64,000 bases of DNA from Arenicellales bacterium (GCA_965216735.1 OZ244198.1:4725628-4789627), one strand, 5' to 3'; positions 13,355-43,841 are shown, counted from the stretch's first letter. Made by a program: numbers and translations. Notes: generated by a model from the letters alone, not told the origin.

Positions 13355-13755
13355 ATCCCACCCGGCTATTTTCTATTACAGAAATCATCGTACCGGGCTA
13401 TTTTCCGCTTTTATAAATTACTGATACGCTCCATCAGGAATGTCAGACAAGTACCTGGATTCAGTATCCCGGTCGAGGTGCGACACGATGAACATCGAAT
13501 GAACAAGGTTTTATATCCACGGTGGTATGAAGACTAAGCGGTAAAGAATAGTGCTCTTTGATGAACGTTGCCGGCAAACGCTAAGGTCAACGGCAGAACT
13601 ATCAAATCACGGTATTGAAACTGATGCCGGTCAGTTCGTGCGATTGATAACAACAAGTCTGTCTCTTCAGTGATGAATTATGATGGTGGAATGGGGTCAA
13701 AAGAACCAGGCACATGTTGAACCTGGATCTGAATTGGTTGAAAAAGCAATATTTG

Positions 13756-14235
13756 ATGCGACGACATGTCTATACAGGTCTTCTGCCATGGTGGTCCGGG
13801 GTTGTTTTGTGTGCTTTGAGTAGCTATTGCAGCGCCGACAATATGGAATCGAAAGTCGAAGCTCATCGTCTGTTGACAGAACGATTTCAAGCATGGGAAA
13901 TGGGGCAGGATTCGGATTACCTCGTCGACGGCTATGCTGAAATCGTTGTTTTACTCACGGATTTCGATTCACCGTTACCGAAGGTGACCCATCAAGTGCA
14001 ATACCGGGAGGAAATACATCGACGTCAGCGAATATTGACTATGGCTATGCCCAGCGACAGTTACCGACGTGTGACTACATTATCTTCATCGCCTCGACTA
14101 ATTATGTATATCAATCATGAAGGATTAGATTATTTGTACGCGGATAGACGTGTCGATCTATGGGTTCCGAGTAAATGGTCTATGCCGCCGGTTAATTGGT
14201 CTGTATCGCATAGCAAAGCGGCGACATACGAATAA
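13756..14235 (+). CDS. hypothetical secreted protein
   Basis: Within ORF 13714..14235. MRRHVYTGLLPWWSGVVLCALSSYCSADN looks like a signal peptide. The start is uncertain. Confidence 0.4.
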   Translation: MRRHVYTGLLPWWSGVVLCALSSYCSADNMESKVEAHRLLTERFQAWEMGQDSDYLVDGYAEIVVLLTDFDSPLPKVTHQVQYREEIHRRQRILTMAMPSDSYRRVTTLSSSPRLIMYINHEGLDYLYADRRVDLWVPSKWSMPPVNWSVSHSKAATYE

Positions 14236-14704
14236 TGCGTAACTTTATGTCAGGAACATTGTTTAAATGAGTACACAAACACCATTTAGTAATGTCGGCT
14301 TGTATCGATGGTGTGTGCAAATGCACCCTGGTGCGCGAGAGTGCCAAGCTCTGAATACAATATTTGCAATACTATGCCCCTTTTTGATGACAATCCATTA
14401 AAGGGCGATATAGAAACGGTTAAGTTCTTTGTGTTAATGTGTTTCCAACCCCTCCGGAGCCTACAGTTTGTTCGCCAGCGGCTACAACCATAATTTCTTC
14501 CTGTGGCCCAACCTTATTAGAGCACACTGAGGTATCGGTTCGAAAAAGTCACGAATCTCGTCGATTAGACAACGCTAACCGCAGCCCTGGCAGGTCGAAC
14601 GCGCCCGCAAAACCACGTCTGAGTCACCGCATTAAGCGAGGTCTGGAAACGACGTGATTTCGTGTGATTGATGCAAAGGTACCGTATCCAACAAAACCAT
14701 AACT

Positions 14705-14743
14705 TGTGAAGTAGATCACAGTTTGTGTGTGAACTAGTTCACA
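14705..14743. promoter_or_regulatory. tandem pair of perfect CRP-like palindromes (TGTGA-AGTAGA-TCACA and TGTGA-ACTAGT-TCACA), 23 bp centre to centre
   Basis: Read directly at 14705-14720 and 14728-14743. TAGACT at 14765-14770 sits at class II spacing from the second site. The pair lies in a ~700-bp gap with no convincing gene. Confidence 0.55.
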
Positions 14744-14946
14744 TATTTAATAATTTCGAACGAGTAGACTGCAAACCTCTCTGGGGTATGTTAGGGGGGG
14801 ATGCGGCTGAGTTCCCAAATACACCCGGCTCGGCGCGCATCTTTTCTAGCACGTCGGTGCCGCGAATTTAGTTCCGACGCCTTATCTTCCCGTCATTTCT
14901 GTTCGCCTTGAAAAACACATTGTTTAAGGCGTGAGACGTGAATTTA

Positions 14947-15285
14947 CTAAAACAACGTCCACTCTGAAGTTGGGGTTTGTTTAGTAAAAAAGAATGTACG
15001 TTTTCGATCACGGTCAATAACGATGCAACTAAGCCGTAGCGGATAGGTAACATTGTTTCTTTGCGAGAATTCAATTTCGTCGCTCGTGAACTCAAGCGAT
15101 TTATCTTCGCCCGCTCCCAGTCCTGGAAGTAACCCGTCTTCTTTTGATTCCATACATTTGTGTAACATGCTTAACAATTCCTTGCCGTAAGGACTTTTCT
15201 CAAATTTTGTTTCCATTATCGAACAGCCGGTTATACTAAACACGAAAGTGACTAGTATAAGATTGAAATTTGATAGCTGTTTCAC
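14947..15285 (-). CDS. hypothetical lipoprotein
   Basis: MKQLSNFNLILVTFVFSITGC contains a lipobox (ITGC). Confidence 0.5.
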   Translation of the reverse strand: MKQLSNFNLILVTFVFSITGCSIMETKFEKSPYGKELLSMLHKCMESKEDGLLPGLGAGEDKSLEFTSDEIEFSQRNNVTYPLRLSCIVIDRDRKRTFFFTKQTPTSEWTLF

Positions 15286-15362
15286 AGTTTATCTCCAACG
15301 CCCAAAATTAGAAAATTCATTAGAGGCGAGGCGTATTTGCCTCTGACGAATTAAGAGAAATA

Positions 15363-15827
15363 TTACAAACACTTGGCATGACCTATCTTGCGTCTCCGTT
15401 CCTCACGAAGATCGCGCAAACTATCCGGCAAATTCTTATCGATGTCCGCATCGCCCGGATAGCCATTGTTAATTAAGTGTGGATACAGAGTCTTTACTAT
15501 CTGATGTTTACCCTGATCTTCTAAGATAACCGCGTGCGTAAAGTAAGCCAGCATACGGGTCAACCGTCGAGAAGATGTTTTCATCGGCGTCAGGTTGGCC
15601 ATGGCCAAATCATGATGACAATTGATGATTTGTTCTGTCATTCTCTTGGATTCTTTCGCGTCTTTCCCTAACATCAGAGAAACACAACCACCAAGCGGTG
15701 CCAATAGAATACTGACTATCAAAACCGTACGAATACAGAGGCGATGTTGTTTTGGTTTCACCGTTGATCTCCCAAATTGTGTGCGCACAACACCTTTTCT
15801 GAAAACTTTCTTCAATTCAACTGACAA
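15363..15827 (-). CDS. hypothetical protein, possible lipoprotein
   Basis: Internal LLAPLGGC lipobox-like signal. The start is uncertain. Confidence 0.4.
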   Translation of the reverse strand: MSVELKKVFRKGVVRTQFGRSTVKPKQHRLCIRTVLIVSILLAPLGGCVSLMLGKDAKESKRMTEQIINCHHDLAMANLTPMKTSSRRLTRMLAYFTHAVILEDQGKHQIVKTLYPHLINNGYPGDADIDKNLPDSLRDLREERRRKIGHAKCL

Positions 15828-15843
15828 TTTCTATCTAAAAAGA

Positions 15844-16224
15844 TCAACCCACCACTTGATGACCACGTTGACGCATGCACTCAACGACGATCTGTTTGCG
15901 CTCATCTCGTGTTTCCCAGGCCCTTGCGCCACTACTTAGAACGCTACCTGCTATTGCCGCACCCACGGCGCCCTCCAAGCCATCGTCGATAGCGCCGAGC
16001 ACGGCTCCCGTAACAGCACCAGCGATCGCTTCGCTTTTTACATCACCATTGGCGAATCGGCGTTCGGTCGCCAGTGACTGACAGGCACCGAGATCAGATG
16101 TGTACTGGTCACCCATTTCACCATCGACGATGGGCTCGTATTTGGCCCCACTGTGCGCGCAACCCAAAGTGAGACTTAAATTGGTGAGAATAATTGCAAG
16201 TTTAAGTTTTGTTGCATGTTTCAT
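15844..16224 (-). CDS. glycine-zipper outer-membrane lipoprotein
   Basis: MKHATKLKLAIILTNLSLTLGC lipobox. AIAGAVTGAVLGAIDDGLEGAVGAAIAGSV is a glycine-zipper repeat. Confidence 0.6.
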   Translation of the reverse strand: MKHATKLKLAIILTNLSLTLGCAHSGAKYEPIVDGEMGDQYTSDLGACQSLATERRFANGDVKSEAIAGAVTGAVLGAIDDGLEGAVGAAIAGSVLSSGARAWETRDERKQIVVECMRQRGHQVVG

Positions 16225-16235
16225 TTAGACAACTC

Positions 16236-16295
16236 CTAAAAGGTCTTGGATAGTGTTAAAGAAAACTAAAAAGTCTTGGATAGTGTTAAAGAAAA
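16236..16295. repeat. 30-bp perfect-but-one tandem duplication (2 copies)
   Basis: ctaaaaGgtcttggatagtgttaaagaaaa followed by ctaaaaAgtcttggatagtgttaaagaaaa, in the intergenic region between the OMP and lipoprotein genes. Confidence 0.9.
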
Positions 16296-16316
16296 GCCCA
16301 GGAATGAATAACACGT

Positions 16317-17063
16317 TCAGAACGAGTAAGCTAAACCGATAAAAATTCGGTGATCGTCCAAATCGTAATCGGTCTTTTCGCCGTCATTTTTGTCGTTGTT
16401 GTATTCGGGTCCAATAAAATAGGTCGTGAAGTTATACTCCGCACGCACTGACCATCGTTCAAAAAGTGGAATGGCGACACCCGCACCAACGACACCACCA
16501 ATCCAGTCGTGCACGGAGCCAGAAAACCCTTCAGTCGGATTGCCGGCCGAATCGATGGCAGTCACAGTGAGCGTGCTTACTTCAATGTCGGTATACGCGA
16601 GGCCAGCTCTTCCATAAACCAGCCAATCATTGGGAAGTTGCTTTCCAAACAAACCAGATACTTGTAACTTCCAGCCATTTGTTACGTGGAAGAACTTGTT
16701 ATCGCCTTCCGGTTTGGCCAGAAACGAATCGTCAATGTCATCTTTGAATTTTTGCGCATCGATCTCGACCCCTAAAAATTGGGACCCACGGTACCAACCA
16801 TGGCCTGCGAATCCCCCCCAAGTGGCTTTACTATAGTCAAGATCGATTCCATCCTTGCGATATCGAAATGGTGCGACGTCCTCGTGATGTCCCTTTAGAT
16901 CCAAATTGATATGTCCGGCTTCGATGCCGGTATACCAACCTTGCATTGGGCGATATGTTGTGCTGTCATCCGCCTGAGTTACGGGATGGATCGCACCTAA
17001 TCCGACGACGAGCGTTAATACAATAGGACTTGTTTTCCGGTACAGCCCAAAAGAGATTGACAT
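16317..17063 (-). CDS. outer-membrane beta-barrel protein (OmpA-like/porin-family barrel)
   Basis: Signal peptide, alternating aromatic/Gly beta-strand pattern, and a C-terminal ...GLAYSF with terminal Phe. Confidence 0.65.
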   Translation of the reverse strand: MSISFGLYRKTSPIVLTLVVGLGAIHPVTQADDSTTYRPMQGWYTGIEAGHINLDLKGHHEDVAPFRYRKDGIDLDYSKATWGGFAGHGWYRGSQFLGVEIDAQKFKDDIDDSFLAKPEGDNKFFHVTNGWKLQVSGLFGKQLPNDWLVYGRAGLAYTDIEVSTLTVTAIDSAGNPTEGFSGSVHDWIGGVVGAGVAIPLFERWSVRAEYNFTTYFIGPEYNNDKNDGEKTDYDLDDHRIFIGLAYSF

Positions 17064-17181
17064 TAATTTAGATACTCCCGTGTTTGTTGAAAACCGGGTG
17101 TATCATCCAACAGTGTCCAATGCGTATTCCATTTAGTTTTTGTAGAGATGTGTAAGCGATTGTCAGTTACCTGAACCAAAA

Positions 17182-17892
17182 GTGAACACATCTTCCGAAA
17201 CACGCTCGACACGGCTCTTGCTGGTCGAAGATGATGCAGAGCTTGCGAAAATGATCTCCGATTTTCTCAGCGATGAAGGATTTGAAGTGGGCTGGGTAGA
17301 TAATGGCAAAACCGCTGTTGAGAAAATCTGTTGCGACGTGCCTGATTTAGTGATTCTAGACGTTATGTTGCCGGAGCTTGACGGAATAGAGGTTTGCCGT
17401 TGTGTTAAAGACGAGTTTTCGAATCCTATTTTGATGTTGACAGCTAAAGATGACGAACTGACCGAAGTAACATCTTTAAATCGTGGAGCAATGGGATACC
17501 TCACAAAACCAGTGAGAGCGCATGTACTACTGGCCCACATTAAGGCGCTGTTAAGACATAAAAATTCCGCAATCCGACCACCGGCAAACGACACAATCAT
17601 TGTCCAAGATCTCATACTGAGTAAAAGAGCTTATGAAGTGACATTGGGTAATGAACGATTGGATCTGACGTCGGCCGAGTTTCAATTATTAGCCTTGTTA
17701 GCAGAAAATGCCGGGCGGATTATTTCCCGAGATACCCTCTATAAAGAGTTGCGGGGAATCGAATATGATGGGATAGACCGTTCCATTGATATGCGTGTGT
17801 CATCATTACGAGAAAAAATGAACGATGAAACACCCCCTTATCGGTACATTAAAACGATAAGAGGGAAAGGATATCTACTCGCGTCAACGTAG
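17182..17892 (+). CDS. OmpR-family response regulator
   Basis: REC domain (LLLVEDD ... LVILDVMLPELDG ... LTAK) followed by a winged-helix C-terminus (...IKTIRGKGYLL). Confidence 0.9.
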   Translation: MNTSSETRSTRLLLVEDDAELAKMISDFLSDEGFEVGWVDNGKTAVEKICCDVPDLVILDVMLPELDGIEVCRCVKDEFSNPILMLTAKDDELTEVTSLNRGAMGYLTKPVRAHVLLAHIKALLRHKNSAIRPPANDTIIVQDLILSKRAYEVTLGNERLDLTSAEFQLLALLAENAGRIISRDTLYKELRGIEYDGIDRSIDMRVSSLREKMNDETPPYRYIKTIRGKGYLLAST

Positions 17893-17986
17893 CGTTTTCC
17901 TGACAATTACTTACATAACCGAACAAATCTTACGTCGTTAAAGGACGACCGATTTGATATAACAGTGGTTGAATGAGCACCACGAC

Positions 17987-19258
17987 ATGAAATCCATATT
18001 TGCAAGAACCTACATTGTCATTGCGGTATTGATCTTTGTTTCCCTATTTGCAACGATCATTATCGTAGACAATTTATTTGAAACAACGGATAGTGAGATA
18101 TTCATTGATGGAGCAACCTTGGAAGCGAAATACATCGAAGCGGAACTCCGCTTTGTGCCGGAATCGACATGGAACACTTGGATAGAGGAATACCAATCTG
18201 ATCTCGGACACATCATTGAGTTGGTAACAGACGTCGGGGAAGACAAGGGTCAGGTCAATACAAAAGCAACTTTTTCCGGCATTCGGGCGGATTACTGGTC
18301 GATACGTTATCCCCTTGATGGTTATCACAAATCTTTAATTGTGAGTGAAAGCGACGGTTCGTTTGCTGATATCCCCACTGATGACTGGCTCGAAATACTA
18401 ATTCCCATAGGAACCATTTTTCTAATATTGGCATTTGGGATTCTATATCTGGCAAGAAGAATTACGAAACCAATAGGTGATTTAGTACAGGCCACTCAAG
18501 CATTTACGGATGGTAATCTCAATATTCGCGTTGCCGAAGATGTTTCCCACCCGGTGGACAATTTAGCGATTGGGTTTAATGAGATGGCGACACGACTTCA
18601 GGAGTTAGTGCGTGACCAACAAGTTCTGATCGGTGCGTTGCCGCACGAACTACGCAGTCCTTTGGGCCGTATTCGGTTTGCACTCGATACGTCACGCAAT
18701 TTGAACACAGTGGATGCATTGCGCGTACGCATCGAGAAAATCGATAGTTATGTGGATGAATTGTATGGCATCACCGAAGATGTCCTGACTTTGATTCAGT
18801 TGCAAAACGAAAAAGTGGTGCAATACCATCCAATTAACTTAAAAGCTCTACTAGAGGAGGTTTGTAGATATGAGGACTTTCGATCCATCGTTGATGTTTC
18901 TTATACAACGAACATCAGCCAACCTATTCATGGCAATACTGCTTTAATACGAAGAGCGTTAGCTAATCTTGTTGACAACGCTTGTCGTTATGCAAAAACC
19001 AAAGTAGAAATTCAAGCAAATCAAACTAATTCGCAAGTTCAGGTTACAGTTAGTGATGATGGTCCTGGAATTGAATCTGAATACCGTGACCAGGTATTTA
19101 CGCCATTCTCAAGAATCGATGAAAGCCGAAGTCGTAAGTCTGGTGGAGTGGGTTTAGGGTTGGCCTTAGTCGATATGATTATGAAAAAACACCAAGGCAG
19201 TACAACGGTAACTACTAGTCCATGGGGTGGTGCCCAATTTACACTGACTTGGAGTTAA
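17987..19258 (+). CDS. sensor histidine kinase (2 TM, HAMP, HisKA, HATPase_c)
   Basis: H-box LPHELRSPL, N-box LVDNACRYA, G-boxes DDGPGI and GGVGLGLA. An alternative TTG start exists at 17969. Confidence 0.85.
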   Translation: MKSIFARTYIVIAVLIFVSLFATIIIVDNLFETTDSEIFIDGATLEAKYIEAELRFVPESTWNTWIEEYQSDLGHIIELVTDVGEDKGQVNTKATFSGIRADYWSIRYPLDGYHKSLIVSESDGSFADIPTDDWLEILIPIGTIFLILAFGILYLARRITKPIGDLVQATQAFTDGNLNIRVAEDVSHPVDNLAIGFNEMATRLQELVRDQQVLIGALPHELRSPLGRIRFALDTSRNLNTVDALRVRIEKIDSYVDELYGITEDVLTLIQLQNEKVVQYHPINLKALLEEVCRYEDFRSIVDVSYTTNISQPIHGNTALIRRALANLVDNACRYAKTKVEIQANQTNSQVQVTVSDDGPGIESEYRDQVFTPFSRIDESRSRKSGGVGLGLALVDMIMKKHQGSTTVTTSPWGGAQFTLTWS

Positions 19259-19422
19259 GATGGTTCATCAAAAACAAGTTTATCAGTCCTATTCGACACT
19301 GTCGGGGGGGAAGTGAATTAAGCCTATAAATCACCCTTTACACCATACGCTGGTGTTTCTTGAACTAAATGATCATCGAAAGGTTGGCCCGGCGGTCGGA
19401 TAAGATACTCACCCGCTATGAT

Positions 19423-20552: not shown

Positions 20553-20583
20553 GTTAGAGGTCTCGTATTCCGAGGCCTCTAAC
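20553..20583. other. 13-bp stem-loop downstream of P1
   Basis: gttagaggtctcg / tattc / cgaggcctctaac. This gives 13 pairs, one of them a G-U wobble on plus-strand RNA. No adjacent U-run, so it is not a classical intrinsic terminator. Confidence 0.4.
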
Positions 20584-20635: not shown

Positions 20636-20911
20636 CTAGTTAATAACGCCTCCGGTAGTTGTTGGCGCGGGTGTTGTTGCAGGTGCAGCGGTCGTGGTGG
20701 GTGCGGTCGTAGTTGCTGGGGCCGAGGTGGTCGTTACAACTGTAGTTGTTTGCGCATGCGCTGGAAGAACAACACTATCCACAATAGGTCTTGTCCACTC
20801 GCGGGGTAACGCCTTAGTAACAACAGCGGTTGCCCCGCCGGTCAGTAAAATGGTCTTTAACGTTTTTCGTCGCTGGCTGGATTTATTTGAGTAGTTCTTT
20901 TCTTGTGTCAC
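20636..20911 (-). CDS. P1: minimal member of the Tat-like-leader family (leader plus a 35-aa Thr/Pro/Ala-rich tail)
   Basis: SQRRKTLKTILLTGGATAVVTKALPREWTRPIVDSVVLPAHAQTT matches the leader of P2-P6. The remainder is TVVTTTSAPATTTAPTTTAAPATTPAPTTTGGVIN. Confidence 0.65.
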   Translation of the reverse strand: MTQEKNYSNKSSQRRKTLKTILLTGGATAVVTKALPREWTRPIVDSVVLPAHAQTTTVVTTTSAPATTTAPTTTAAPATTPAPTTTGGVIN

Positions 20912-21581
20912 GTTAATCTCCCGCTGTTCAAATATTTGGCGCGAGTCTCACATAACGCCAATCAAATGTAAATATCACGACAGCAAAGCTAATAATCCCA
21001 GAAAGCTTATTTTTACAATATGAACAGTGTACATGTTGCTACAAAGGATTCCATACCCGGACTGGAATTTATTTCAACATGACCCGTGCTTTTCAAGGTT
21101 TATTAAAGATTAGGTTCTGATTTACCAAGTTACACCATATGAGCAGGGATGACGGTATTTATTGATCATTGAAGCACTCATACTAATGTGATGGTGTTAG
21201 CTCACTGCGCGAGTGTTTGAACAGACTACAATAGCATTGTGAACAATTGTAAAATTATTGACTTATGCATTTATCGATATATACAGTTCAGAATGTCGAA
21301 ATGAGTCAATCGATGCACACTCACTAAGTTGCAATATTTGATCGCTATCGACTAATATAACGCCGTAGTTCTAAGCGGAGAATACGGTACGCCAGGGAGG
21401 GGGAGATGATGGGCCCTGACGCACCGTATGATGTTGACACTTGTTTTTACCCAATCTCCACATTGGGTATTTTTACCGAGGACAATTGGGGGCGTCGTCC
21501 TACAGCGTGCAGCAGTATACGGCTGCAAGAATTCAGGTTACAACACACACCCACGCAGGGTAATCCTGCAAAAACGCTGTA

Positions 21582-29013: not shown

Positions 29014-29513
29014 TAGCGAGCCGATGAATCTTGATAATGGTGCGGCGAACGGGGGCTACAATAAAACCAAACACTCATTGAATTCCACGCCCTGCGGGGA
29101 GAAAGGTCATGCTCTTACTCCTTAAGAACCCTGCTCGGAGGGTCCAATTAACAATTGTTTACATTCCGAATCGCTTGTTGGATTGTGACAAACTGTTTGT
29201 CTAGTGTATAACTAGTCGTGTCCCCGTTTGGGGGGGACAACTTACACAAAGTGTATTGATCGTGTTTTGATCATCGCTTTTTTGGGGGTCTAAATAGCTG
29301 TTGTCTTATTTGGGGTAGGCCAACACTATTTGATTTCGGAAACACGGGGTAAGTTGCGTAGTAGAGCTGCGCAACGGAACTGATTCAATTCCGTATGACA
29401 CGCGGAACTGAATTGGTATTGGGGTAACTCGAATAGTTTAGCCTTCACGTTGCGCGTAACTGGTTTTGATTTGTCAAAGCGGCAAATCTATTTTGGCATT
29501 TGTGGGGGTACAT

Positions 29514-31193
29514 ATGTGTACATGTAATTCTAGAGTTGGAAGGGGGCTATTTTCTTCTCTTTTCCTTACGTTTTTGATGTTTGTGGGAACGATCCAAGCG
29601 CAAGAAGTCGCAAATCCTGATTTGGTTCAATCTTGTGGATTGGATATCGCCCTTGTTCTTGACGAGTCAGGTTCTATTCAGGACCAAAACGCGATTAACG
29701 CCGTTAGGCAAGCCTCGAAATCTTTCGTTGGAGCGCTGAGTGGCACTGGTTCCAGTGTGTCTATTGTTGAATTTAATACCCGTGCAAGAACGGTACTTCC
29801 GTTAACAGAAGTCACGGACAGCTCCATGCAATCTTTTTACGATTACATTGATGCGACTTCGGGTAATCCAGACACTGGATACGATCCCTCGGTTTATACC
29901 AACATGGAACGTGGTACAAACTGGGAAGACGCATTTCGTACAACAGCGAGTAACCAATCCACTCCGTTACTGGTTTTTGTAACTGACGGTGATCCAACAT
30001 TCTGGCTGGTGGATCCGGACAATACGGCAATAGGTGGCGTTGGCTATGACACAGGGAATAACAATGCGGACTCTGCAAACCAGGCGACACCGGTAGCAAA
30101 CGCTATTAAACAAAACGGAACCCATATCTTGATGATAGGTGTGGGCCCGGGTCTTTCTGGTGCCGTACAACAAGGTCGGTTGATGCAAGTATCGGGACCG
30201 GATCTGGTTACGGATTTAACCAGTTTTGATCTAGCTACCACGGATGTTATGGTTGTTTCGGATTTTGCGTCTTCGTTATCGGCCGTTCTCCGGCAAATCG
30301 TTGTATCGCTTTGCGCACCATCCATCACTTTTCAGAAGTTGGCCAAAGATATTGGTGAAAGCGCTTATTCGGTAGAAAGTGGTTGGACCTTTTCGGGTAC
30401 TGTCCAAACGAATGACGGTACTCCCGTTGAATGGATTACGCCGAATGCAGGCAGCACAGCCGCCGAACAATCCGGCCAAACCGATGAAAACGGAGAAATC
30501 ACTTTTCATTGGGTAGCGGACAGCGACGTTGCCTTTACCTGGGACGAAGATTTACAAGACTTTTCCTTTGTGGATGGCCAATGTTCGAAACGGACATTCG
30601 AAAGCGACGGTCATGTGGATTCAACATTCGCCACCATCCCACTGGAAACTTTCGTCGTATCCGACAGTGACTATATCTCTTGTGTGGTGAGGAACGAACG
30701 ACACATTGTGGTCAACACTTGTGACGACGGAAAACCCGCTGGACTCGTGTTTCGTTACGACGGCTCAGGTGCTGAAGATGACACCAATTCGCAACTCACC
30801 AACGAATTAATCGTGGAGGGTGATCCGATGTCAATGGACCCGGTGTTTATTGAAGTCTTCGATCACAAAGGTGTTGTACTATTCGCCGGCACGGTGGGTT
30901 TAAATGACACTTTTCAAGTCTCGGGCACCAAACGGCTCATTCCACCCCGTATGCGCTTCTTAGTGTATGACGCGGAAGGTGGCAGCGTGTTGCAAACGGT
31001 GCAGTTCCATACCTCGTGTTCGCAACCCTTGAATACGGGCGATTCCTTTGGTTCTATCGTACTAGTGGGTGAGACCCAGGTTTCTTCCGGTGGCAATCCA
31101 GGCAAGCCAAATAATGGCGATGGTGACAAGCCGGAAAACCCCGGTAAATCAAAAGGCAAGAAACTCGGTAAGGACAAAGGAAAAAAATCCTAG
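29514..31193 (+). CDS. secreted von Willebrand factor A (vWA) domain protein with a Lys/Gly-rich C-terminal tail
   Basis: Signal MCTCNSRVGRGLFSSLFLTFLMFVGTIQAQE. MIDAS DIALVLDESGSI. The C-terminus is GGNPGKPNNGDGDKPENPGKSKGKKLGKDKGKKS. The ORF track start at 29466 is less likely. Confidence 0.75.
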   Translation: MCTCNSRVGRGLFSSLFLTFLMFVGTIQAQEVANPDLVQSCGLDIALVLDESGSIQDQNAINAVRQASKSFVGALSGTGSSVSIVEFNTRARTVLPLTEVTDSSMQSFYDYIDATSGNPDTGYDPSVYTNMERGTNWEDAFRTTASNQSTPLLVFVTDGDPTFWLVDPDNTAIGGVGYDTGNNNADSANQATPVANAIKQNGTHILMIGVGPGLSGAVQQGRLMQVSGPDLVTDLTSFDLATTDVMVVSDFASSLSAVLRQIVVSLCAPSITFQKLAKDIGESAYSVESGWTFSGTVQTNDGTPVEWITPNAGSTAAEQSGQTDENGEITFHWVADSDVAFTWDEDLQDFSFVDGQCSKRTFESDGHVDSTFATIPLETFVVSDSDYISCVVRNERHIVVNTCDDGKPAGLVFRYDGSGAEDDTNSQLTNELIVEGDPMSMDPVFIEVFDHKGVVLFAGTVGLNDTFQVSGTKRLIPPRMRFLVYDAEGGSVLQTVQFHTSCSQPLNTGDSFGSIVLVGETQVSSGGNPGKPNNGDGDKPENPGKSKGKKLGKDKGKKS

Positions 31194-32929: not shown

Positions 32930-33583
32930 TCACCGAACAGGTAGCTGATTTTCGGCATTCTTCGAGTATCCGTAACAATCGAAGTCCGCTTCGAAAAGCT
33001 GGCGTACGATTTCAGTTGTCGTTTCGTCGTAGTATTCCGCTATCTCACGGTCATCCCTCATCGGATGCCGGTAAGTATTGAATTGGGGGAAGCGACGGTT
33101 TATGTGTAATGCCGACGCGACAGGTCGAATTGCATATGGAAGCCGTTCGAAGTGGGCCACATAATCGCAGATATCTACTCCATCGAGTTGGGTGTAGCAC
33201 ACTTGTGGTAGGTAATGCGATCCCTTCTGGTGGGCGGCGGCGGTAGCTAGCTCGGGTAGCGACAGGACGAAATTTCTGAAATTTCCAAACCGCTGCACGT
33301 GATGATCGTATAAGTAGTAATAAACTGAAACTAGACGCGAAAAAGGATTTCGCACGACGGTAAACTTGTAGTAACTATCAAATATATCACTGCCCAATTT
33401 ACGTTGAATAACTTTTGCTGTAGCGTGTTGTAAATAGATACCCTCTTCAGGGTCCCAGCCAAATAAGGAATCGTGATCGGCCACTCTATGGTCGCGTTTT
33501 TCATCCCGTAACCAGCGCTCCACCGAAACACCGGCTGTCTTTCCAATATGAAAGTAGATACATTTATGTTCGTGAAAAACCAT
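32930..33583 (-). CDS. sulfotransferase-family protein (PAPS-dependent type)
   Basis: FHIGKTAGVSVERWL resembles the 5'-PSB loop (hIPKTGGTS). FTVVRNPFSRLVSVYYY resembles the RNPxxRxxS 3'-PB motif. Confidence 0.7.
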   Translation of the reverse strand: MVFHEHKCIYFHIGKTAGVSVERWLRDEKRDHRVADHDSLFGWDPEEGIYLQHATAKVIQRKLGSDIFDSYYKFTVVRNPFSRLVSVYYYLYDHHVQRFGNFRNFVLSLPELATAAAHQKGSHYLPQVCYTQLDGVDICDYVAHFERLPYAIRPVASALHINRRFPQFNTYRHPMRDDREIAEYYDETTTEIVRQLFEADFDCYGYSKNAENQLPVR

Positions 33584-33950: not shown

Positions 33951-35795
33951 ATGAAGACGTGGTACGTTGAGTTCGGGGGTCATTCGGCCGCCATTCAATA
34001 CGAAGACAATTCCGTCGCCGATCTTCTTGAATTTCTGTTCGTAGACCTTCCTGCAACTTCTGCAATTACTCCGGTAGAAACCTTTCGAATCATGGCGGAC
34101 CCGTCATGGAAACACTGTGAATTGCGTTGGAGTGATGGCCATAGCACCCGTGTGAATTCTCGTTGTGAATTGGCGCTCCAAGTCGTATCCGAAGTTCTTT
34201 TTACATTGATCAATAAATGTAGGGGAGGTCACATAATTCATGCCGCGGCCGTGCACAAAGATAACATGGGTATCTTGATGCCGGGCAAAAGCGGTGCTGG
34301 AAAATCGACTCTATGTGCATGGTTCGTAAAAAACGGCTATACATATCTGACAGACGAAGCGATTTGTTTTCCAACGGGGCAGTCGCGATTTCATTCTTTT
34401 ACACGTCCAATTCATTTTAAGCCGGGTTCTACCTCCGCTCTGAATACATTGTTGAGCGGTGAGAATATCAATGATTTATCTGAAACAGATGGTCATACGA
34501 AGATTGTTCCGCACCGTAGCTTAAATGAAAATTGGAAAAGCGCGGTTCCAGATGTGTGTTTACTGTTATTTCCGGAGTATGCAACCGACCATGACTTCAG
34601 CTTGGAACCTCTTAAACCCGCGCAAGCGAGCATGGCGCTCATGGGTGTGCATGCCAATGCCCGTAATTTAGAACACCATGGGTTTCATGAGATTACTAAC
34701 ATCGCGCGATCAACACCCGCCTTTCGATTATGCTACAGCGATTACACCCAACTCGAAAATAGACTTGATTTATTGGTAGAGCTTGTCTTGGAACGATCCG
34801 CCGATGCCACGCATTTGGTGGAATTATTCCGTTCGATGCAAACCCATCGTGTCATAGATATTCCTTCGAAACAGGAGACAACCGAAAAAGCCACCCACCC
34901 CATACCGGAGCCAACGAAATCCGGTTCCAAGAAAAAACTATGTCTAGGCATGGCTACGTATGACGACTACGACGGTGTTTACTTTTCCGTTCAAGCCATT
35001 CGTATGTTTCATCCCGAAATAACCCAAGACACCGAGATTTTGGTAATCGATAATAATCCGACAGGGGCTTGCAGTCTGGCATTGAAGAAGCTCGACGGTT
35101 CAATAAAGGGTTACCGCTATATGCCCAATGCGAATGTTCAAGGTACCGCAATCAGGGATTTGGTTTTCCAATATGCCAATGCCGACTATGTTTTGTGCAT
35201 GGACTCCCATGTGTTTCTAGAGCCCGGTGCTATCTGCAAATTCATCGATTACTTGGATCAACATCCTGACTGCATGGATTTACTACAAGGCCCCATGTTG
35301 TATGACGACCAATCTACGGTGATGACGCATTTTGAACCGCAATGGCGCCAGGGTATGTACGGTACTTGGGCGCACGACGAACGCGGACAAGACAAAGACA
35401 ACCCACCGTTTGACATTCCCATGCAAGGATTGGGTTTGTTTGGTTGTCGAAAACAGGCGTGGTTAGGATTCAACAAACACTTTCGTGGATTTGGTGGTGA
35501 AGAGGGATATATTCACGAAAAGTTTCGTCAAGCAGGGCGTCAAACCTTGTGTCTACCTTTTCTACGTTGGCTGCATCGTTTCGAACGCCCTAATGGTGTT
35601 CCCTACCGACTTAAATGGGAAGACCGCATATATAACTACTGGGTGGGATTTAGCGAATTGAGTATGGACCCGGCGCCGATGATCGAACATTTTCGTGGTC
35701 ACCTGGGCAAACAAGTGACGGATAATATCTTGGCTGATATCCAGGCGGTCTTTAAAGAAAAAGCAATATTAAAACAAAACATTCCATCAAAATGA
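33951..35795 (+). CDS. fusion protein: N-terminal HPr-kinase-like P-loop domain plus C-terminal family-2-type glycosyltransferase domain
   Basis: IIHAAAVHKDNMGILMPGKSGAGKSTLCAWFVKNGYTYLTDE is the HprK-like Walker A region (nt 34284-34310). From about aa 328, KKLCLGMATYDDYDGVYFSVQAIRM ... ILVIDNNP ... YVLCMDSHVF is a GT-A fold with a D-S-H metal motif at nt 35202-35210. Confidence 0.75.
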   Translation: MKTWYVEFGGHSAAIQYEDNSVADLLEFLFVDLPATSAITPVETFRIMADPSWKHCELRWSDGHSTRVNSRCELALQVVSEVLFTLINKCRGGHIIHAAAVHKDNMGILMPGKSGAGKSTLCAWFVKNGYTYLTDEAICFPTGQSRFHSFTRPIHFKPGSTSALNTLLSGENINDLSETDGHTKIVPHRSLNENWKSAVPDVCLLLFPEYATDHDFSLEPLKPAQASMALMGVHANARNLEHHGFHEITNIARSTPAFRLCYSDYTQLENRLDLLVELVLERSADATHLVELFRSMQTHRVIDIPSKQETTEKATHPIPEPTKSGSKKKLCLGMATYDDYDGVYFSVQAIRMFHPEITQDTEILVIDNNPTGACSLALKKLDGSIKGYRYMPNANVQGTAIRDLVFQYANADYVLCMDSHVFLEPGAICKFIDYLDQHPDCMDLLQGPMLYDDQSTVMTHFEPQWRQGMYGTWAHDERGQDKDNPPFDIPMQGLGLFGCRKQAWLGFNKHFRGFGGEEGYIHEKFRQAGRQTLCLPFLRWLHRFERPNGVPYRLKWEDRIYNYWVGFSELSMDPAPMIEHFRGHLGKQVTDNILADIQAVFKEKAILKQNIPSK

Positions 35796-36310
35796 GTATT
35801 AGACGTCTTTTCATTACCCGACTCATCGGAATGCTCAGCGCCATTCCGATCTTGGGTAACGCCTCACTGCGCGCAAATACCGCTATTGCGGATTCCCCCA
35901 GCTCGGTACAAGATCAATTCCGAATTCTCGTCGACACCTGTGTGCCTCGGGACGACTATCCGGGCGCTGTCGACGAGGGAATCGATAGAAAACTATTGAG
36001 CGAAATTTCGGCGAACCCGATTCATTTGAAACGCGTACACGATTTGCTAATTGATATTGATAAACTGTCGCGTAGTCAATTCAAACAGGTTTTTGTCGAT
36101 CTCGAGTTGTCTAATCGTACCCGTCTACTAGATAGACTATTGAATGATAAAACACTGGTTCCTGACCAACGTGCAGAATTAAGTTACCTACGTGCACGTG
36201 TACTGCAACTGTTTTATACCTCCGAATCCGGATTTGCCATGCTGGATTACCATCCACCCAGTCATGGCGGTTACCCGGACTACGCAAAACCCTTAGATCA
36301 ACTAAGCTAA
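35792..36310 (+). CDS. Tat-signal small subunit (gluconate 2-dehydrogenase subunit-3-like) partnering the GMC flavoprotein
   Basis: MSIRRLFITRLIGMLSAIPILGNASLRANTAIA is a twin-arginine signal. 172 aa. The ATGA overlap with the upstream gene implies translational coupling. It lies directly upstream of the GMC oxidoreductase. Confidence 0.6.
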   Translation: MSIRRLFITRLIGMLSAIPILGNASLRANTAIADSPSSVQDQFRILVDTCVPRDDYPGAVDEGIDRKLLSEISANPIHLKRVHDLLIDIDKLSRSQFKQVFVDLELSNRTRLLDRLLNDKTLVPDQRAELSYLRARVLQLFYTSESGFAMLDYHPPSHGGYPDYAKPLDQLS

Positions 36311-36315
36311 AGCGA

Positions 36316-37956
36316 ATGCCGCAACCTGATTACGATGCCATCGTCATCGGTGCGGGCGCGGGCGGTGGATTCGCGGCGATGGCCCTGGCCGAACGTGGTG
36401 CGAAAGTATTGTCAATCGAACGCGGCAAACGTTTCAATTACAAAACCGACTATCCCATGAACTATCCTGACTGGGAATCGCGTTTGCATCCGTTGTCCAG
36501 TGTTGTGGAAACGTTTCAGCCTGTCGCTACACCGGAAATAGCCAAAACCGATAGCGACATTTGTTCCCGAATCACCGGGTCCCCATCACCACACGCACCT
36601 GGACGACGCGGACAGTTTCAGTATTTACGTTCTATCGGCGTGGGCGGATCCACCTTGCACTATCAAGGGGAAGCACACCGCTTTCCAAGCCACGCTTTTA
36701 GGTCGAAAACCCTATTTGGTTGGGGTGAAGACTGGCCCTTGTTCTATACCGAGTTGGAACCGTACTACGACCAGGTGGAAAAAATCCTGGGCGTCGCCGG
36801 GAATCCGGGTAATCCTTTTAAGGATAAACGTGGAGCATTTCCAACCCCTACCCACTCGTTATCCACCAAAAGCCAGCTCGTCGAGTTTGGCACAAAAAAA
36901 TTGGGTTGGTCGTTACTGCCGAATACGTTGGCGTTGCCCAGCCGCTCTATCGACAACCGTATGCCGTGTCAACATTCCGGCGGTTGTGTTCAAGGTTGTA
37001 TTTTCGGTGCCAAATCCAGTGTCGATCAAACCGCCATCGTGCATGGCGAAAAAACCGGAAACCTGACCGTGTTACCCGAAGCGCGGGTGGTGCAACTGGA
37101 GACGAATAAGAAAGGGGGTGTGACCGGTGTTGTGCTGGTACACAATAAAAAACGTCGACGCATTAGTGCACACAAGTACTTCCTTGCCTTGGGTGCGATT
37201 GAAACGCCTCGTTTGTTGTTGGCCAGTGCATCGAGCTCCCATCCGAATGGTATTGGCAATGCGCACGATCAGGTAGGTCGTTATCTTATGGAAACCATCA
37301 TAGCCAGCATGGAAATATTGGTCGAACAACCGGTGCATGCATACAAAGGCCCGCCCATCGACGCACGTATCTGGGATTTCAATTACCCATCAAAAGATTC
37401 CCGTGTGCGTTCGGGCTATGTATTGGGAGTGTCTGGCACATCGGCAGGCCCCCACGGACCGGTGTCTTACGCGAATAGTGTCCAGGGATTGGGTTTAGAA
37501 CACAAACGGAAGGTGCGTGACATCTTTGGCCGCAATGTCCAACTGTTCGGCATCGCGGAACACATGCCCCACTACGATAATCGATTAAGGCTAGGTGACA
37601 AGAAAGACGCCGATGGCGTGCCACTGGTAACCGTATTCAGCGACTACTCATTCGATGATCGCGAAACACTACGCGAAATGATCAATAAAATCGATACCTT
37701 GGCAGATGCTTGTGGTTTTTTAAACAAAGTGCGTTTGCATTCGAGCTACGACTCTCCATCTTCCACCCATGTCGCCGGCACCTGCCGTATGGGCAGTGAT
37801 CCGGAAAAAGCAGTAACCGATGAGTTGGGCAAAGTGTTTGGCGTCGGCAATCTTTACATTACCGACGCCAGCGTCTTACCGAGTCAGGGAGCGGGCGATT
37901 CCCCGTCCCTGACTATTCAAGCCTTGGCGTTACGAACAGTTCGAATGTTGTCGTGA
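36316..37956 (+). CDS. GMC-family FAD oxidoreductase (no signal peptide of its own)
   Basis: YDAIVIGAGAGGGFAAMALAERGAKV FAD motif. C-terminal GTCRMGSDPEKAVTDELGKVFGVGNLYITDASVLP GMC signature. Confidence 0.85.
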   Translation: MPQPDYDAIVIGAGAGGGFAAMALAERGAKVLSIERGKRFNYKTDYPMNYPDWESRLHPLSSVVETFQPVATPEIAKTDSDICSRITGSPSPHAPGRRGQFQYLRSIGVGGSTLHYQGEAHRFPSHAFRSKTLFGWGEDWPLFYTELEPYYDQVEKILGVAGNPGNPFKDKRGAFPTPTHSLSTKSQLVEFGTKKLGWSLLPNTLALPSRSIDNRMPCQHSGGCVQGCIFGAKSSVDQTAIVHGEKTGNLTVLPEARVVQLETNKKGGVTGVVLVHNKKRRRISAHKYFLALGAIETPRLLLASASSSHPNGIGNAHDQVGRYLMETIIASMEILVEQPVHAYKGPPIDARIWDFNYPSKDSRVRSGYVLGVSGTSAGPHGPVSYANSVQGLGLEHKRKVRDIFGRNVQLFGIAEHMPHYDNRLRLGDKKDADGVPLVTVFSDYSFDDRETLREMINKIDTLADACGFLNKVRLHSSYDSPSSTHVAGTCRMGSDPEKAVTDELGKVFGVGNLYITDASVLPSQGAGDSPSLTIQALALRTVRMLS

Positions 37957-37990: not shown

Positions 37991-38614
37991 TTAAAGGGAG
38001 CAAAATGGCTCACTTGGGCACCCGCTCCCTACCGATAGTGTTCCAGAACTAGCGTAAGTCCCGGACAACGTGAAATCCGCGCCACTCGCTGAAACGCTAT
38101 TAACGGCGATGGATTCCATGCCAAGAATGCAGTTATTGACGTCGACCATGTCCACGGCGCCACCACCCACCACGCCACTTGCGGTGAGGAACGAACCATT
38201 GCCCAGCACTGCCAACGTTGCCGTGAAGTTCGTGCCGTTTACCTCAATACACATGTCAGCAGAATCCTGCGGCAATCCACCGGCATACGCATTTGGAATG
38301 ACTGTATCCAGGATGGTGGCGTATAAACCTTCTTGCGGTTGATCGATACTATTAATAGGAGTTATGGTGACGGAGAACTGACCTCTGAAATTGATGATTG
38401 GCAATGTCGTAGTTGGCGCGGGTGTGGTAGGCACCACGGTGGTTTGCGCATGAGCAGGCAGTATCACACTGTCCACCACCGGTTTGGTCCATTTGGTCGG
38501 TAGTGTTTGGCTGGCCGCAACAGCGGCACCGCTACCGACTAAGAGTCTCTTTAACGCTTTGCGTCGTGCTGTCGGTTGCTCCGGTGGTTGTGATGAATCA
38601 AACGCTTGTTTCAT
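37991..38614 (-). CDS. P3: Tat-like-leader family secreted protein, 4-Cys beta-rich domain
   Basis: I chose the start at MKQAFDSS (ATG 38614) because AAGGAGAA lies upstream and it aligns with P4. Leader TARRKALKRLLVGSGAAVAASQTLPTKWTKPVVDSVILPAHAQTTVVPTTPAPTTT. Confidence 0.75.
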   Translation of the reverse strand: MKQAFDSSQPPEQPTARRKALKRLLVGSGAAVAASQTLPTKWTKPVVDSVILPAHAQTTVVPTTPAPTTTLPIINFRGQFSVTITPINSIDQPQEGLYATILDTVIPNAYAGGLPQDSADMCIEVNGTNFTATLAVLGNGSFLTASGVVGGGAVDMVDVNNCILGMESIAVNSVSASGADFTLSGTYASSGTLSVGSGCPSEPFCSL

Positions 38615-38822
38615 AAGATTTCTCCTTTTCTTCAGTGCGGTTTTAATCAAACCTCGGTGATATCGTAGCTTCATTCATTGCTAAATTTACCGATTTAGGG
38701 TGCCGATGATTCCGATTCTCCGTCTGTCTATCCAATCGCCAACGTTAGCGATAGTGAGCAAAATGTAGAGCATGAACCATGGCTAAAATTGTTGTTTCGT
38801 GTCATAAGGTCAATACTCGTTC

Positions 38823-39452
38823 TTAAGTAAAGATTGGGATACAGTTTCCCGGATCACTGGGGCAACCGTTACCGGTTGGCAGCATTCCGCTAGCGGTAAA
38901 GAAACCGGACATCGTGAAATCCGCTCCACCGGGTGACACGCTATTCACCGAAAGAAATGTGTCGGATACTTCACAAGCGTTCGGGTTGTCCATAATCACT
39001 GGACCTCCACCTACAGTGCCACTGGCGGTCAAGAAAATGGGATCAGTAGCAGTAGGACGAGTAAAGTCAAATCTCACAGCCGCGGTGAAACTGGTACCGT
39101 CCACTGCAATACACATGTCACCGGATTGTGTCGAAGTACCAGCGTGTGCTTTTGGAACGATTGAATCCAGTATGGCAAACAGGCTTTCTGGCTCGTTATT
39201 AATTGTTACTATAGCGTTTGCTGAAACAGGACCCCTGAAATTGATTACTGGTGCCGCCGTCGTAGTGGGCACCACGGTGGTTTGCGCATGCGCCGGTAGT
39301 ATCACACTGTCCACCACTGGTTTGGTCCACTTGGTCGGTAGTGTTTGGCTGGCCGCGACAGCAGCACCGCTACCGACTAAGAGTTTCTTTAACGCTTTTC
39401 GCCGCGCCGTCGGTTGCTCCGGCGGTTGTGATAAATCAAACGTTTGTTTCAT
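38823..39452 (-). CDS. P4: Tat-like-leader family secreted protein
   Basis: The leader differs from P3 at 3 residues out of about 62. The mature part is diverged but keeps 4 Cys (DMCIAV, NACEVS, GNGCPSDPGNC). Confidence 0.75.
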   Translation of the reverse strand: MKQTFDLSQPPEQPTARRKALKKLLVGSGAAVAASQTLPTKWTKPVVDSVILPAHAQTTVVPTTTAAPVINFRGPVSANAIVTINNEPESLFAILDSIVPKAHAGTSTQSGDMCIAVDGTSFTAAVRFDFTRPTATDPIFLTASGTVGGGPVIMDNPNACEVSDTFLSVNSVSPGGADFTMSGFFTASGMLPTGNGCPSDPGNCIPIFT

Positions 39453-41197: not shown

Positions 41198-41376
41198 CTC
41201 TCCGTCTCCCCATAAAGTGTCGAATTTTCTAAAACCCGGCTTTACAACGACAGGTTTCATTTAAAACGGGCACAACGAAGGAGCCCGCTCTCTGCTTGGT
41301 GTCCAATGAATTATCAGACATTCCTTCGTGATAGTTGCTACTGGAAAGCAGTTAAACCAATGACAGCGACGAGCGC

Positions 41377-42671: not shown

Positions 42672-43841
42672 CTAGTTATCAACAGGGGCTTGGTTGCGAA
42701 TACGATACAGGGTATACCGTAGCGTGGAACGTATACGTTGAATCATCCAAAATCCAATACGCGTCCAATGCCGTATACACCGGATCGGTCCGGAGACGTC
42801 CTGCTCCGGTGGTACGCCGTAGTACAAGTGCCACCACCAGGCCGGTGGCCAAACGATGCTTCTTAGATACTTTAAACTGCGTCGATAGTTGCGGATTGAC
42901 CACGGCACACTGGACAGTGTGGGAATACCCCGACCCGCGCCCGATGGAGCGGGCACAGTGGGCGGCGATATTCTGCGCTGTAATATCGGCGGCATCGGGG
43001 AAACGTAGTGTAAACAACGTATGGTGTTTTCGATGATCGGATGGTTCTGTTTAAGCGAAAGCCAATCGATGTCCTCATCAAAATGCGCACAGTAAGCATA
43101 AACGTCTACAATGGATATAAGCTTTGTTTCCATCACAGGCTCTGCTAAATGACGGCACAAGTGCTTCAACATATCCGCATGGCCGAGATGCTGGGCAGAT
43201 ACTTCGCTGACCGAGTAATTTTGAACTTCACTCATGAGGTTTTTCATTGAGATAGAGGCGCGGGCGTCCGGAGCAATCGCGTCGCGGTGGACCTCGACGC
43301 TGATAGCGAGTCCGTCAAACTCTTTCTTGGCGATGGCCATGTGATGATGATCGAACTTTACGCCGGGTCTAACTAAAGACGCACCACTGTAACCGAGTGA
43401 GCCCAACAGTTGCTGGGCCCGGTTGCATTTATCTTCGTCCACCAAGAGATCGATATCCGACATCGGTCTCAATTCCGGTGCGGGATAAACGGTGTAAGCC
43501 AGTGCTGCACCTTTCAAAACAATAACGGAAATATTCTGACTCTCTAGCTTTTGTAATATCTCGATGAGCGCGTGTGTGCGAACTTTTGTCGCATGCCGAT
43601 GACGTAGCGCCAACGATTTCAGCTGTAGTTCAGTGTCATTAGGAATTACGATGCCGAGTTGTTTGAGGTGCCGGTGCAGCAGCGGTGCCATACCATGTTG
43701 TTCGGCACGTTGGGCCAGTCCCTGCCAAACACTTTTGTCCTTAGCGAGTTGGTTTATAGATGTGACACGTTGATCATCCAGCTCCAGACAGGAGCAAGCG
43801 CGCAACAGGCGAGTAGATGAAGGCAAATCTTGACGTTGCAC
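42672..43841 (-). CDS. nucleotidyltransferase-family protein (NTP_transf_5 / PF14907-like)
   Basis: VIVLKGAALAYTVYPAPELRPMSDIDLLVDEDKCNRAQQLLGSLGY matches the LKG ... R.m.DIDLLV signature of this family. Confidence 0.7.
   Translation of the reverse strand: MQRQDLPSSTRLLRACSCLELDDQRVTSINQLAKDKSVWQGLAQRAEQHGMAPLLHRHLKQLGIVIPNDTELQLKSLALRHRHATKVRTHALIEILQKLESQNISVIVLKGAALAYTVYPAPELRPMSDIDLLVDEDKCNRAQQLLGSLGYSGASLVRPGVKFDHHHMAIAKKEFDGLAISVEVHRDAIAPDARASISMKNLMSEVQNYSVSEVSAQHLGHADMLKHLCRHLAEPVMETKLISIVDVYAYCAHFDEDIDWLSLKQNHPIIENTIRCLHYVSPMPPILQRRISPPTVPAPSGAGRGIPTLSSVPWSIRNYRRSLKYLRSIVWPPAWWWHLYYGVPPEQDVSGPIRCIRHWTRIGFWMIQRIRSTLRYTLYRIRNQAPVDN

Follow-up and report, generated by a model that had tools for sequence, protein, structure and literature searches.

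P1 of an Arenicellales bacterium, a candidate precursor peptide with a twin-arginine-type leader and a threonine-rich core

Related systems and the place of P1

The Linear Polyphosphorylated Peptides (LPP) of Bacillota (Popov et al., Nat Commun 2026; PMC13381572) are made from precursors of 35-200 aa with conserved N-termini, a YxxPxV... leader motif and hypervariable C-termini; an HprK-like kinase polyphosphorylates Ser3 of the core, and an enzyme resembling signal peptidase I (SpI) removes the leader when a RiPP recognition element (RRE; RiPPs are peptides made on the ribosome and then modified post-translationally) presents the precursor. Here we describe a related system in a 64,000-nucleotide stretch of an Arenicellales bacterium (GCA_965216735.1 OZ244198.1:4725628-4789627; the window, positions being counted from its first letter), centred on the open reading frame (ORF) P1, which an earlier note made from the DNA alone had proposed as a RiPP-style precursor. 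The ORF of 91 aa plus stop codon lies on the minus strand where that note had placed it (20636..20911), and its leader of ~53 aa is common to five other ORFs of the window, the paralogs P2-P6, with invariant RR..L and P..W..P..D.V.LPAHAQTT; a hidden Markov model of the leader found exactly these six members in the window. Judged from sequence comparison, P1 would be a functional precursor peptide that belongs to the short class of a large family without a name and follows the LPP-type RiPP logic in a Gram-negative variant bearing a twin-arginine translocation (Tat) signal, a reading to which we assign a probability of about 0.6. P1 is an ordinary member of this short class; it is the class itself that is large, unnamed and mechanistically unusual.

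LPP clusters and the window have in common a trio of discrete PqqD-type RRE, HprK-like kinase and NTP transferase, and the LPP core gene set is present in the window. Both share precursors with a conserved N-terminus and a hypervariable C-terminus, [Y/W]xxPxV in the leader, a linear product without a cyclase, a hydroxyl residue conserved at position 3 of the core (Ser3 in LPP; T56, at core position +3, in P1) and a leader ending in a motif cut by SpI-type enzymes, with product and cleavage predicted here. LPP clusters also encode an archaeal-type SpI (LppS) and an MsbA-like exporter, whereas neither an archaeal-type (SipW-like) SpI nor an MsbA-like exporter was found among the Pfam-scanned ORFs, the ORFs near P1 and the cluster, or the gene families conserved across 86 loci. 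Moreover, the LPP motif reads YxxPxVLxHQxIxFETxxS with F-3/T-1 and ours LPxxWxKPVVxSVxLPAHA, so that only [Y/W]xxPxV is shared; the LPP kinase stands alone, whereas ours is fused to a glycosyltransferase (GT) resembling polypeptide GalNAc-transferases (ppGalNAc-Ts); and the LPP leader lacks the Tat-like signal seen here as RR, hydrophobic (h-) region and AXA site. The cores of LPP, unlike those described here, are not poly-Thr, and LPP are reported as restricted to Bacillota, while the hosts of our family are Pseudomonadota and soil or peat bacteria.

The tailoring of the lasso peptides paeninodin and pseudomycoidin (PMC8498205) is similar in that W(-15)xxP leaders dock on a PqqD-type B1 protein, an HprK homolog places phosphate on a Ser of the linear precursor, this phosphate receives a hexose from an NTP transferase, and some clusters include a sulfotransferase gene. 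It differs in that the modified residue is the C-terminal Ser and that the core here is not a lasso sequence; the Asn-synthetase-like cyclase and the transglutaminase-like B2 protease of lasso pathways are absent from the cluster inventory and the conserved neighbours. Bufferins and DUF2282 precursors (mentioned in PMC12710340) are RiPP precursors that likewise begin with a secretion signal peptide, but theirs is a Sec rather than a Tat-like signal without a defined RRE motif inside it, and the chemistry is that of MNIO enzymes on Cys. P1 does not resemble the glycocins with their Cys-stapled helical core: it has no Cys, and the glycocin-type SunS model was matched weakly (39.9 bits against 350), by a different GT at another locus. 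Fusions of RRE and GT have been noted as uncharacterised (PMC7470986, PMC12710340). In the literature we found no description of poly-Thr precursors or of Tat-signal RiPP leaders, and a search on ScmC/SynChlorMet returned unrelated acronyms only.

Putative recognition motif and probable export signal in the leader

Leader statistics were obtained from 374 family sequences tabulated relative to P-A-H-A and selected by a pattern with W-15, P-4 and A-1 fixed and positions -12 (P/T/A), -3 (A/S) and -2 (H/D/Y/R) restricted. At positions left free by this selection, strong preferences were observed for L-19 (81%), P-18 (93%), K/R-13 (92%), V/I at -11 and -10 (about 90-96%) and S-8 (74%), and in 99% of the family a Ser or Thr occupies core position +3 (S 75%, T 24%); within the residues allowed at the restricted positions, P-12 (99%), A-3 (99%) and H-2 (98%) prevail. 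The cores vary, resulting in a conserved leader followed by a hypervariable core. In P1, W39 and P42 fall at -15 and -12, the [W/Y]xxP register of StsA and PbaA. For StsA, the recognition sequence of a PqqD-type RRE was mapped experimentally to W-15/K-13/P-12 (PMC12710340), and W-15 is also part of the mapped recognition sequence of the paeninodin-type PbaA (PMC13381572). W(-15)xxP(-12) is a putative RRE docking site in the same register as the mapped PqqD-type recognition sequences. The c-region of an ordinary signal peptide would not keep 21 residues conserved across phyla.

The same leader also has the anatomy of an export signal. Throughout the 374 sequences the RR pair precedes the cleavage motif by a constant 38 aa (range 32-41) and is followed by an h-region of ~13 aa that is rich in G/A/V/T and moderately hydrophobic (family mean Kyte-Doolittle value 1.4); P1 conforms with RRKTLK, a 13-aa h-region and PAHA. 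Seventeen of 98 family members match TIGR01409 (TAT_signal) at E<=0.05, among the paralogs P5 exceeds the cutoff of this model (17.1 against 16.7), and one family member is named Tat-signal protein by NCBI. In long Arenicellales members the leader precedes unrelated extracytoplasmic domains, namely CHRD, fasciclin, Gly_rich_2 and Peptidase_S74. The leader thus appears to be a hybrid of a twin-arginine-type signal, an RRE-type recognition motif and an AXA site, in this order. The earlier interpretation was largely right but incomplete: it took the leader for a RiPP leader only and overlooked that it is apparently an export signal as well.

Cassette enzymes and the proposed route

When 185,579 species genomes were scanned for the motif, 187 leader loci were confirmed, mostly from Arenicellales and with several loci per genome, whose post-leader regions range from 7 to ~300 aa. 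A leader profile search in 1.84 billion cluster representatives (50% identity) gave 4,696 matches at E<=1e-3, of which 1,790 were left with the threshold at E<=1e-10, and the best 120 matches of a word-indexed search were all proteins of 51-86 aa made up of the leader and a short S/T/P-rich core; a single-sequence homolog search with a word index yielded 10 proteins only, and motif and profile searches were needed. The leader family is large and is named neither in Pfam nor in NCBIfam. Outside Arenicellales, P1-like peptides consist of the leader and a poly-Thr core of 10-80 aa. One pair of ORFs calls for caution in counts of short members: at locus L051 (5313-6190) an apparently short member of 90 aa overlaps the next ORF, which begins with the region of a second motif copy, and the two probably represent a single gene broken up by a frameshift in a metagenome-assembled genome (MAG).

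The GT domain, which is sharply conserved (52-63% identity among relatives), served for a reverse search in metagenomes that resulted in 508 confirmed stretches. Among the best 80 loci, which were inspected and many of which lie on contigs of 2-6 kb, 22 have a canonical leader gene, mostly leader plus poly-Thr core with PGPTTTTTTTTTTTTTTTTTTAAPGPL and ASAPATTTTTTTTTTTTTTTEIIR as typical cores, and in 16 of these 22 it lies directly upstream of the kinase-GT gene on the same strand, PqqD being adjacent. Two of three long contigs looked up encode a precursor together with PqqD, ScmC/HprK-GT and NTP_transf_5. The recurring cassette comprises one or more precursors, a PqqD protein (~95 aa), a fusion of ScmC/HprK-like kinase and GT2 (~600 aa) and NTP_transf_5; the window contains all these components plus a sulfotransferase, and no conserved transporter or protease was found in the cassette among the gene families across the 86 loci. 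P1-like short members adjoining PqqD/HprK-like genes, which the earlier note had suggested looking for in other genomes, thus occur in many lineages and usually directly upstream of the kinase-GT gene. Because short genes for leader and poly-Thr core recur beside the cassette, the architecture of P1 is the one found with the enzymes across lineages, and the five clustered paralogs are an Arenicellales-style elaboration of it. The earlier suggestion that P1 is possibly the ancestral precursor holds for this architecture and not demonstrably for P1 itself, whose leader is ~60% identical to those of its genomic paralogs and 36-50% to those of distant short members. At five GT loci without the canonical W..P..PAHA leader, poly-Thr ORFs were found behind canonical Tat motifs, as in DRRQFVKRILGMAGFAVPAV…TTTTTTTT. 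The Tat signals before these poly-Thr stretches are of the RRxFVK type, which suggests that alternative leader families may serve the same kinase-GT enzyme.

The kinase-GT of the window (614 aa; >1,100 full-length homologs) reaches 92 bits with TIGR04352 against a cutoff of 200, and the PqqD protein 25.4 with the HPr-rel-A PqqD model TIGR04353 against a cutoff of 35. By these scores the pair is a sister group of Haft's HPr-rel-A system (TIGR04352/TIGR04353) and not a member of it. The N-terminal half of the kinase-GT matches HPr kinase 1ko7 at sequence level (E 2.5e-5), and both the Walker A residues G115, G117 and K118 and the triplet D418-S-H420 are invariant among homologs. An AlphaFold2 model built from 43 sequences (mean pLDDT 85.5) was compared with the PDB by Foldseek, and the top 50 matches were all ppGalNAc-Ts with probability 1.0 (E 1e-12 to 2e-9, ~250-350 aligned columns, 13-16% identity). 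No tie between the GT and ppGalNAc-Ts was found at sequence level, and the likeness holds at fold level only. We take D418-S-H420 to be consistent with the DxH metal motif of the ppGalNAc-T family. An hhalign comparison with a GalNAc-T2 catalytic sequence aligned DSH/DSH, GLGLF/AGGLF, FGGEEGY/WGGENLE and LHRF/GHVF with low probability and serves as a lead only. No ricin-type lectin domain was detected in the kinase-GT, PF00535 being the sole GT family match. In its predicted fold the kinase-GT is thus closest to ppGalNAc-Ts, the enzymes of mucin-type O-glycosylation.

The likeness to the GT27 ppGalNAc-Ts of animals and protists comprises the closest solved folds, the invariant DxH and substrates in the form of Thr/Pro/Ala-rich unstructured repeats, and an Ala/Pro/Thr-repeat substrate is also known from antifreeze glycoproteins. 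Besides the low identity and the missing lectin domain, a difference is that our enzyme would act in the cytoplasm under the guidance of leader and RRE. The mucin-like, O-modified product that the earlier note had expected gains support from the Foldseek result, as far as the fold is concerned. Many kinase-GT homologs contain extra C-terminal GT25 or LicD domains, and one homolog of 1,057 aa fuses PqqD, ScmC, GT2 and GT25; the extra GT25 and LicD domains point to variable multi-step decoration with glycans or phospho-alcohols.

In the mechanism that we propose, the 53-aa leader would do two jobs, RRE docking and export. The PqqD protein of the cluster would bind the WxxP segment (L-19, P-18, W-15, R-13, P-12) of the nascent leader in the cytoplasm and present the core to the bifunctional kinase/GalNAc-T-like GT, to the NTP_transf_5 enzyme and to the sulfotransferase. 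Phosphorylation of the Ser or Thr at core position +3, T56 in P1, would fall to the kinase domain, and O-glycosylation or other decoration of the Thr-rich core to the GT domain, perhaps assisted by NTP_transf_5 and the sulfotransferase. The RR/h-region would direct export by Tat or possibly Sec, and a type-I signal peptidase would cut after PAHA, releasing a 38-aa mucin-like glycopeptide QTTTVV...GGVIN. Lying over part of the signal, PqqD could delay export until modification is finished, comparable to the Tat proofreading chaperones TorD, DmsD and NapD, which bind their cognate Tat signal peptide in the cytoplasm until maturation is complete; these assist in inserting cofactors into redox enzymes, and their folds are unrelated. 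Cytoplasmic O-glycosylation before export, as proposed for P1, is known from the serine-rich repeat glycoproteins of accessory Sec systems, in which Ser/Thr-rich repeats are glycosylated behind an unusually long specialised signal peptide. These are giant Gram-positive adhesins with GtfA/B enzymes and a dedicated SecA2/Y2 translocon, and they differ by having no RRE. We infer from the comparisons above that P1 is a substrate of the cassette enzymes, and likewise each biochemical step, the export route and the cleavage site.

Several observations weigh against this scheme. P1 lies 11-13 kb from the cassette enzymes, and its upstream region shares nothing convincing with those of P2-P6, only a weak TTTGATT, which is located 45-58 nt upstream of the starts of P1, P3 and P4 (20950-20970, 38660-38675 and 39495-39510) and is too short to evaluate. 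P1 itself has no match to TIGR01409 at E<=0.1, and the spacing of 21 residues between h-region and AXA is unusually long for the c-region of a signal peptide. PDB sequence searches with the kinase-GT gave generic GT2 enzymes, TarP and chondroitin synthase, instead of ppGalNAc-Ts. A canonical leader gene is missing from twelve GT loci that have at least 3 kb on each side, and in the vicinity of one short member no cassette was evident. We know of no precedent for Tat export of a pre-glycosylated peptide. Finally, P1 has Thr at +3, whereas the LPP kinase LppK did not phosphorylate an S3T variant (PMC13381572).

A first alternative is that P1 is simply a small Tat- or Sec-secreted low-complexity Thr/Pro/Ala peptide or linker-only protein, with a leader that is merely a lineage-specific export or sorting signal and a cassette that does not act on P1. 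The RR motif, the h-region, the AXA site and the TAT_signal matches of the leader agree with this, as do the distance from the enzymes and the dozens of unrelated extracytoplasmic cargo domains, scattered over the genome, that follow the leader in Arenicellales. A plain signal peptide, however, would not keep L-19, P-18, W-15, K/R-13, P-12 and S/T+3 invariant across phyla; the motif has the register of mapped RRE recognition sequences, and in distant lineages short poly-Thr members lie immediately upstream of the kinase-GT. We therefore regard plain secretion as unlikely, although it is the strongest of the alternatives, and prefer the leader-guided modification of P1.

The P1 gene, its surroundings and outlook

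P1 orthologs were found in two relatives, with 91 aa in L005 (Arenicellales MAG contig CBDCFT010000061.1) and 97 aa in L001 (metagenome contig from the European Nucleotide Archive), both between the same LysR and M48 neighbours; the L005 ortholog shares its contig with L008, the ortholog of the main cluster. The separation of P1 from the main cluster, given before as 11 kb, amounts to 11.3 kb to the nearest paralog, P2. A gap of 487 bp to the M48 metalloprotease is obtained if the latter starts at its second Met (20148), but from the first ATG (20226) it is 409 bp.

This neighbour bears on a second alternative, which takes P1 for a RiPP precursor of the classical cytoplasmic kind: its leader would not serve export and would be removed by a dedicated protease, such as the M48 enzyme encoded 400-490 bp downstream, and the product would leave by another route. 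Cleavage by pathway proteases is usual for RiPP leaders, and the P1-M48 pair is kept in both relatives. Yet M48 adjoins P1 orthologs only there and is absent from all other family loci, the LoiP-like protein has a signal-type or lipoprotein-like N-terminus of its own, the two genes are set apart by a conserved hairpin, and the RR/h-region/AXA anatomy together with the extracytoplasmic cargo domains favours export via the leader. This alternative is improbable, and M48 as pathway protease was rejected, given that it does not co-occur outside near relatives.

Compared with its L005 ortholog, P1 shows 23 synonymous and 7 non-synonymous differences (pN/pS 0.038/0.313, ratio about 0.12), and the L001 ortholog has an in-frame insertion of 6 aa in the core, while the C-terminal end TTTGGVIN is common to all three. 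A loss or disruption of P1 in relatives that keep the cluster had been named as an argument against its function; instead, L005 retains an intact ORF that is under purifying selection. No remnant of a C-terminal domain was found 3' of P1 by tblastn, and no tandem repeat at DNA level was found in the core by TRF, for which reason slippage as origin of the core was rejected. Because the orthologs are intact and show this substitution pattern, and because domain remnant and DNA tandem repeat are missing, P1 is on sequence grounds a real, selected coding gene and not a decaying fragment. That P1 is a functionless truncated paralog that has lost its C-terminal domain is very improbable and was rejected as a pseudogene reading: of the six window members it alone lacks such a domain, and its first core residues QTTTVVTTT resemble QTTVVPTTT of P3-P6, but the selection, the identical stop codon and C-terminus in two relatives despite an in-frame indel, the absence of a downstream remnant and the fact that the short form is the commonest architecture across the family all speak against it.

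As to composition, the tail quoted in the earlier note is 36 instead of 35 aa long, and Thr and Ser account for 16 and not 18 of the last 35 residues; 18 is reached in the 38 residues after AHA. Around P1, Rfam gave chance-level matches only, and consensus scans found neither a sigma-70 promoter on the minus strand upstream nor a terminator-like site downstream. The hairpin following the gene, with an RNA fold centroid of -18.9 kcal/mol, may serve processing or stability instead of being a terminator. Table 1 lists the features of P1 and of the cluster.

Table 1. Coordinates of P1, its parts, its neighbours and the cluster genes in the window
Feature	Position	Strand	Remarks
P1 coding sequence	20636..20911	-	GTG start at 20911-20909; supported by ORF list, orthologs and selection
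Shine-Dalgarno sequence GGGAG	20918..20922	-	6 nt before the P1 GTG; read from sequence; kept in L001 and L005
Twin-arginine-type signal, R14-R15-K-T-L-K and h-region TILLTGGATAVVT, aa 14-32	20816..20872	-	RRxxLK and 13-aa h-region family-wide
Putative RRE (PqqD) recognition sequence L35-P-R-E-W39-T-R-P42-I-V-D-S-V-V48	20768..20809	-	L-19, P-18, W-15, R-13, P-12
P50-A-H-A53, AXA-type SpI-like motif	20753..20764	-	predicted cut A53/Q54
P1 core peptide, 38 aa QTTTVVTTTSAPATTTAPTTTAAPATTPAPTTTGGVIN	20639..20752	-	17 Thr, 1 Ser, 7 Ala, 5 Pro
Hairpin, 13-bp stem, no U-tract	20553..20583	-	~55 nt after P1 stop; kept in L001 and L005
M48 (LoiP-like) metalloprotease, downstream of P1	19423..20226	-	PF01435, NF052399; system membership not supported
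LysR-type regulator, divergent from P1	21582..22499	+	Pfam HTH_1, LysR_substrate; synteny kept in L005
Paralog P2	32231..32779	+	leader, T/P/N-rich linker, Cys-rich domain
Sulfotransferase, accessory gene	32930..33583	-	PF03567; homologs near family members at four other loci
PqqD-family RRE protein, 90 aa	33669..33941	+	PF05402 E 9e-17; weak matches to lasso and HPr-rel-A PqqD models
HprK-like kinase (Walker A G115/G117/K118) fused to GT-A GT (D418-S-H420)	33951..35795	+	TIGR04352, PF00535
Paralogs P3-P6	37991..41260 (37991-38674, 38823-39452, 39626-40258, 40622-41260)	-	leader, short QTTVVPTTT segment, ~150-aa domain
NTP_transf_5 nucleotidyltransferase-family protein	42672..43841	-	PF14907 E 5e-45; family in cassette of other lineages

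Directly after the kinase-GT gene, a Gluconate_2-dh3-family subunit with an RR signal of its own (35792-36310) overlaps the stop codon of the former by 4 nt with its start and is followed by a GMC oxidoreductase (36316-37956); homologs lie near family members at four other loci, and a periplasmic oxidation of attached sugars by the two proteins is conceivable. Among the paralogs, P3 and P5 have an internal second copy of the leader end ~33 aa after the first PAHA, of the form hydrophobic-hydrophobic-D-x-x-x-x-P-x-A-H-A (e.g. ILDTVIPNAHAGG). Such a copy is present in 23 of 187 long members, at 13 further loci among others, and could be an extra recognition or cleavage site that releases the intervening T-rich segment. 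A second kind of short member, unlike P1, was observed at six loci of Arenicella genomes, where the leader is followed by an acidic mini-domain of 59-65 aa with 6 Cys (…CVTDSTVGGPL…CQAACEAEA…LC…C.CDLDLP). In the flanks, ~6 kb between M48 and a class-IV aminotransferase (13400-19400) encode a response regulator, a histidine kinase, an OmpA-like barrel and small lipoprotein-like ORFs; this segment is absent in L001 and L005, where both genes adjoin. A secreted protein with VWA and DUF7467 (29466-31193) flanks the cluster and is 94-96% identical in the relative (L005/L008).

Going further, one may tentatively picture several bacterial phyla as producers of ribosomal 'mini-mucins', a view that we consider possible but hold with less than even confidence. 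A Tat/RRE hybrid leader would hold a poly-Thr peptide in the cytoplasm for phosphorylation and dense O-glycosylation by the kinase-GT, PqqD would act as a Tat-proofreading chaperone, and the general Tat machinery and signal peptidase would replace a dedicated exporter and protease. In Arenicellales, the leader would have been recruited onto dozens of secreted proteins. P1 would then be the minimal substrate of this genome, and its Ala/Pro/Thr glycopeptide could work as a hydration or lubrication agent of the antifreeze or mucin type.

If the precursor reading of P1 is true, the gene stands for a class of ribosomal peptides that is very large and comprises thousands of sequence clusters without a name in Pfam or NCBIfam, and their genes could be annotated by the rule RR...LPxxWxKPVVxSVxLPAHA|Q-T-S/T. 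It would also provide a tractable bacterial model for dense O-glycosylation and a portable leader for making defined glycopeptides. For the family, it would extend the LPP-type pathway beyond Bacillota and would be the first combination of three traits, an RRE sequence inside a Tat-type signal, housekeeping export and signal peptidase, and a bacterial enzyme of GalNAc-T fold acting on poly-Thr cores.

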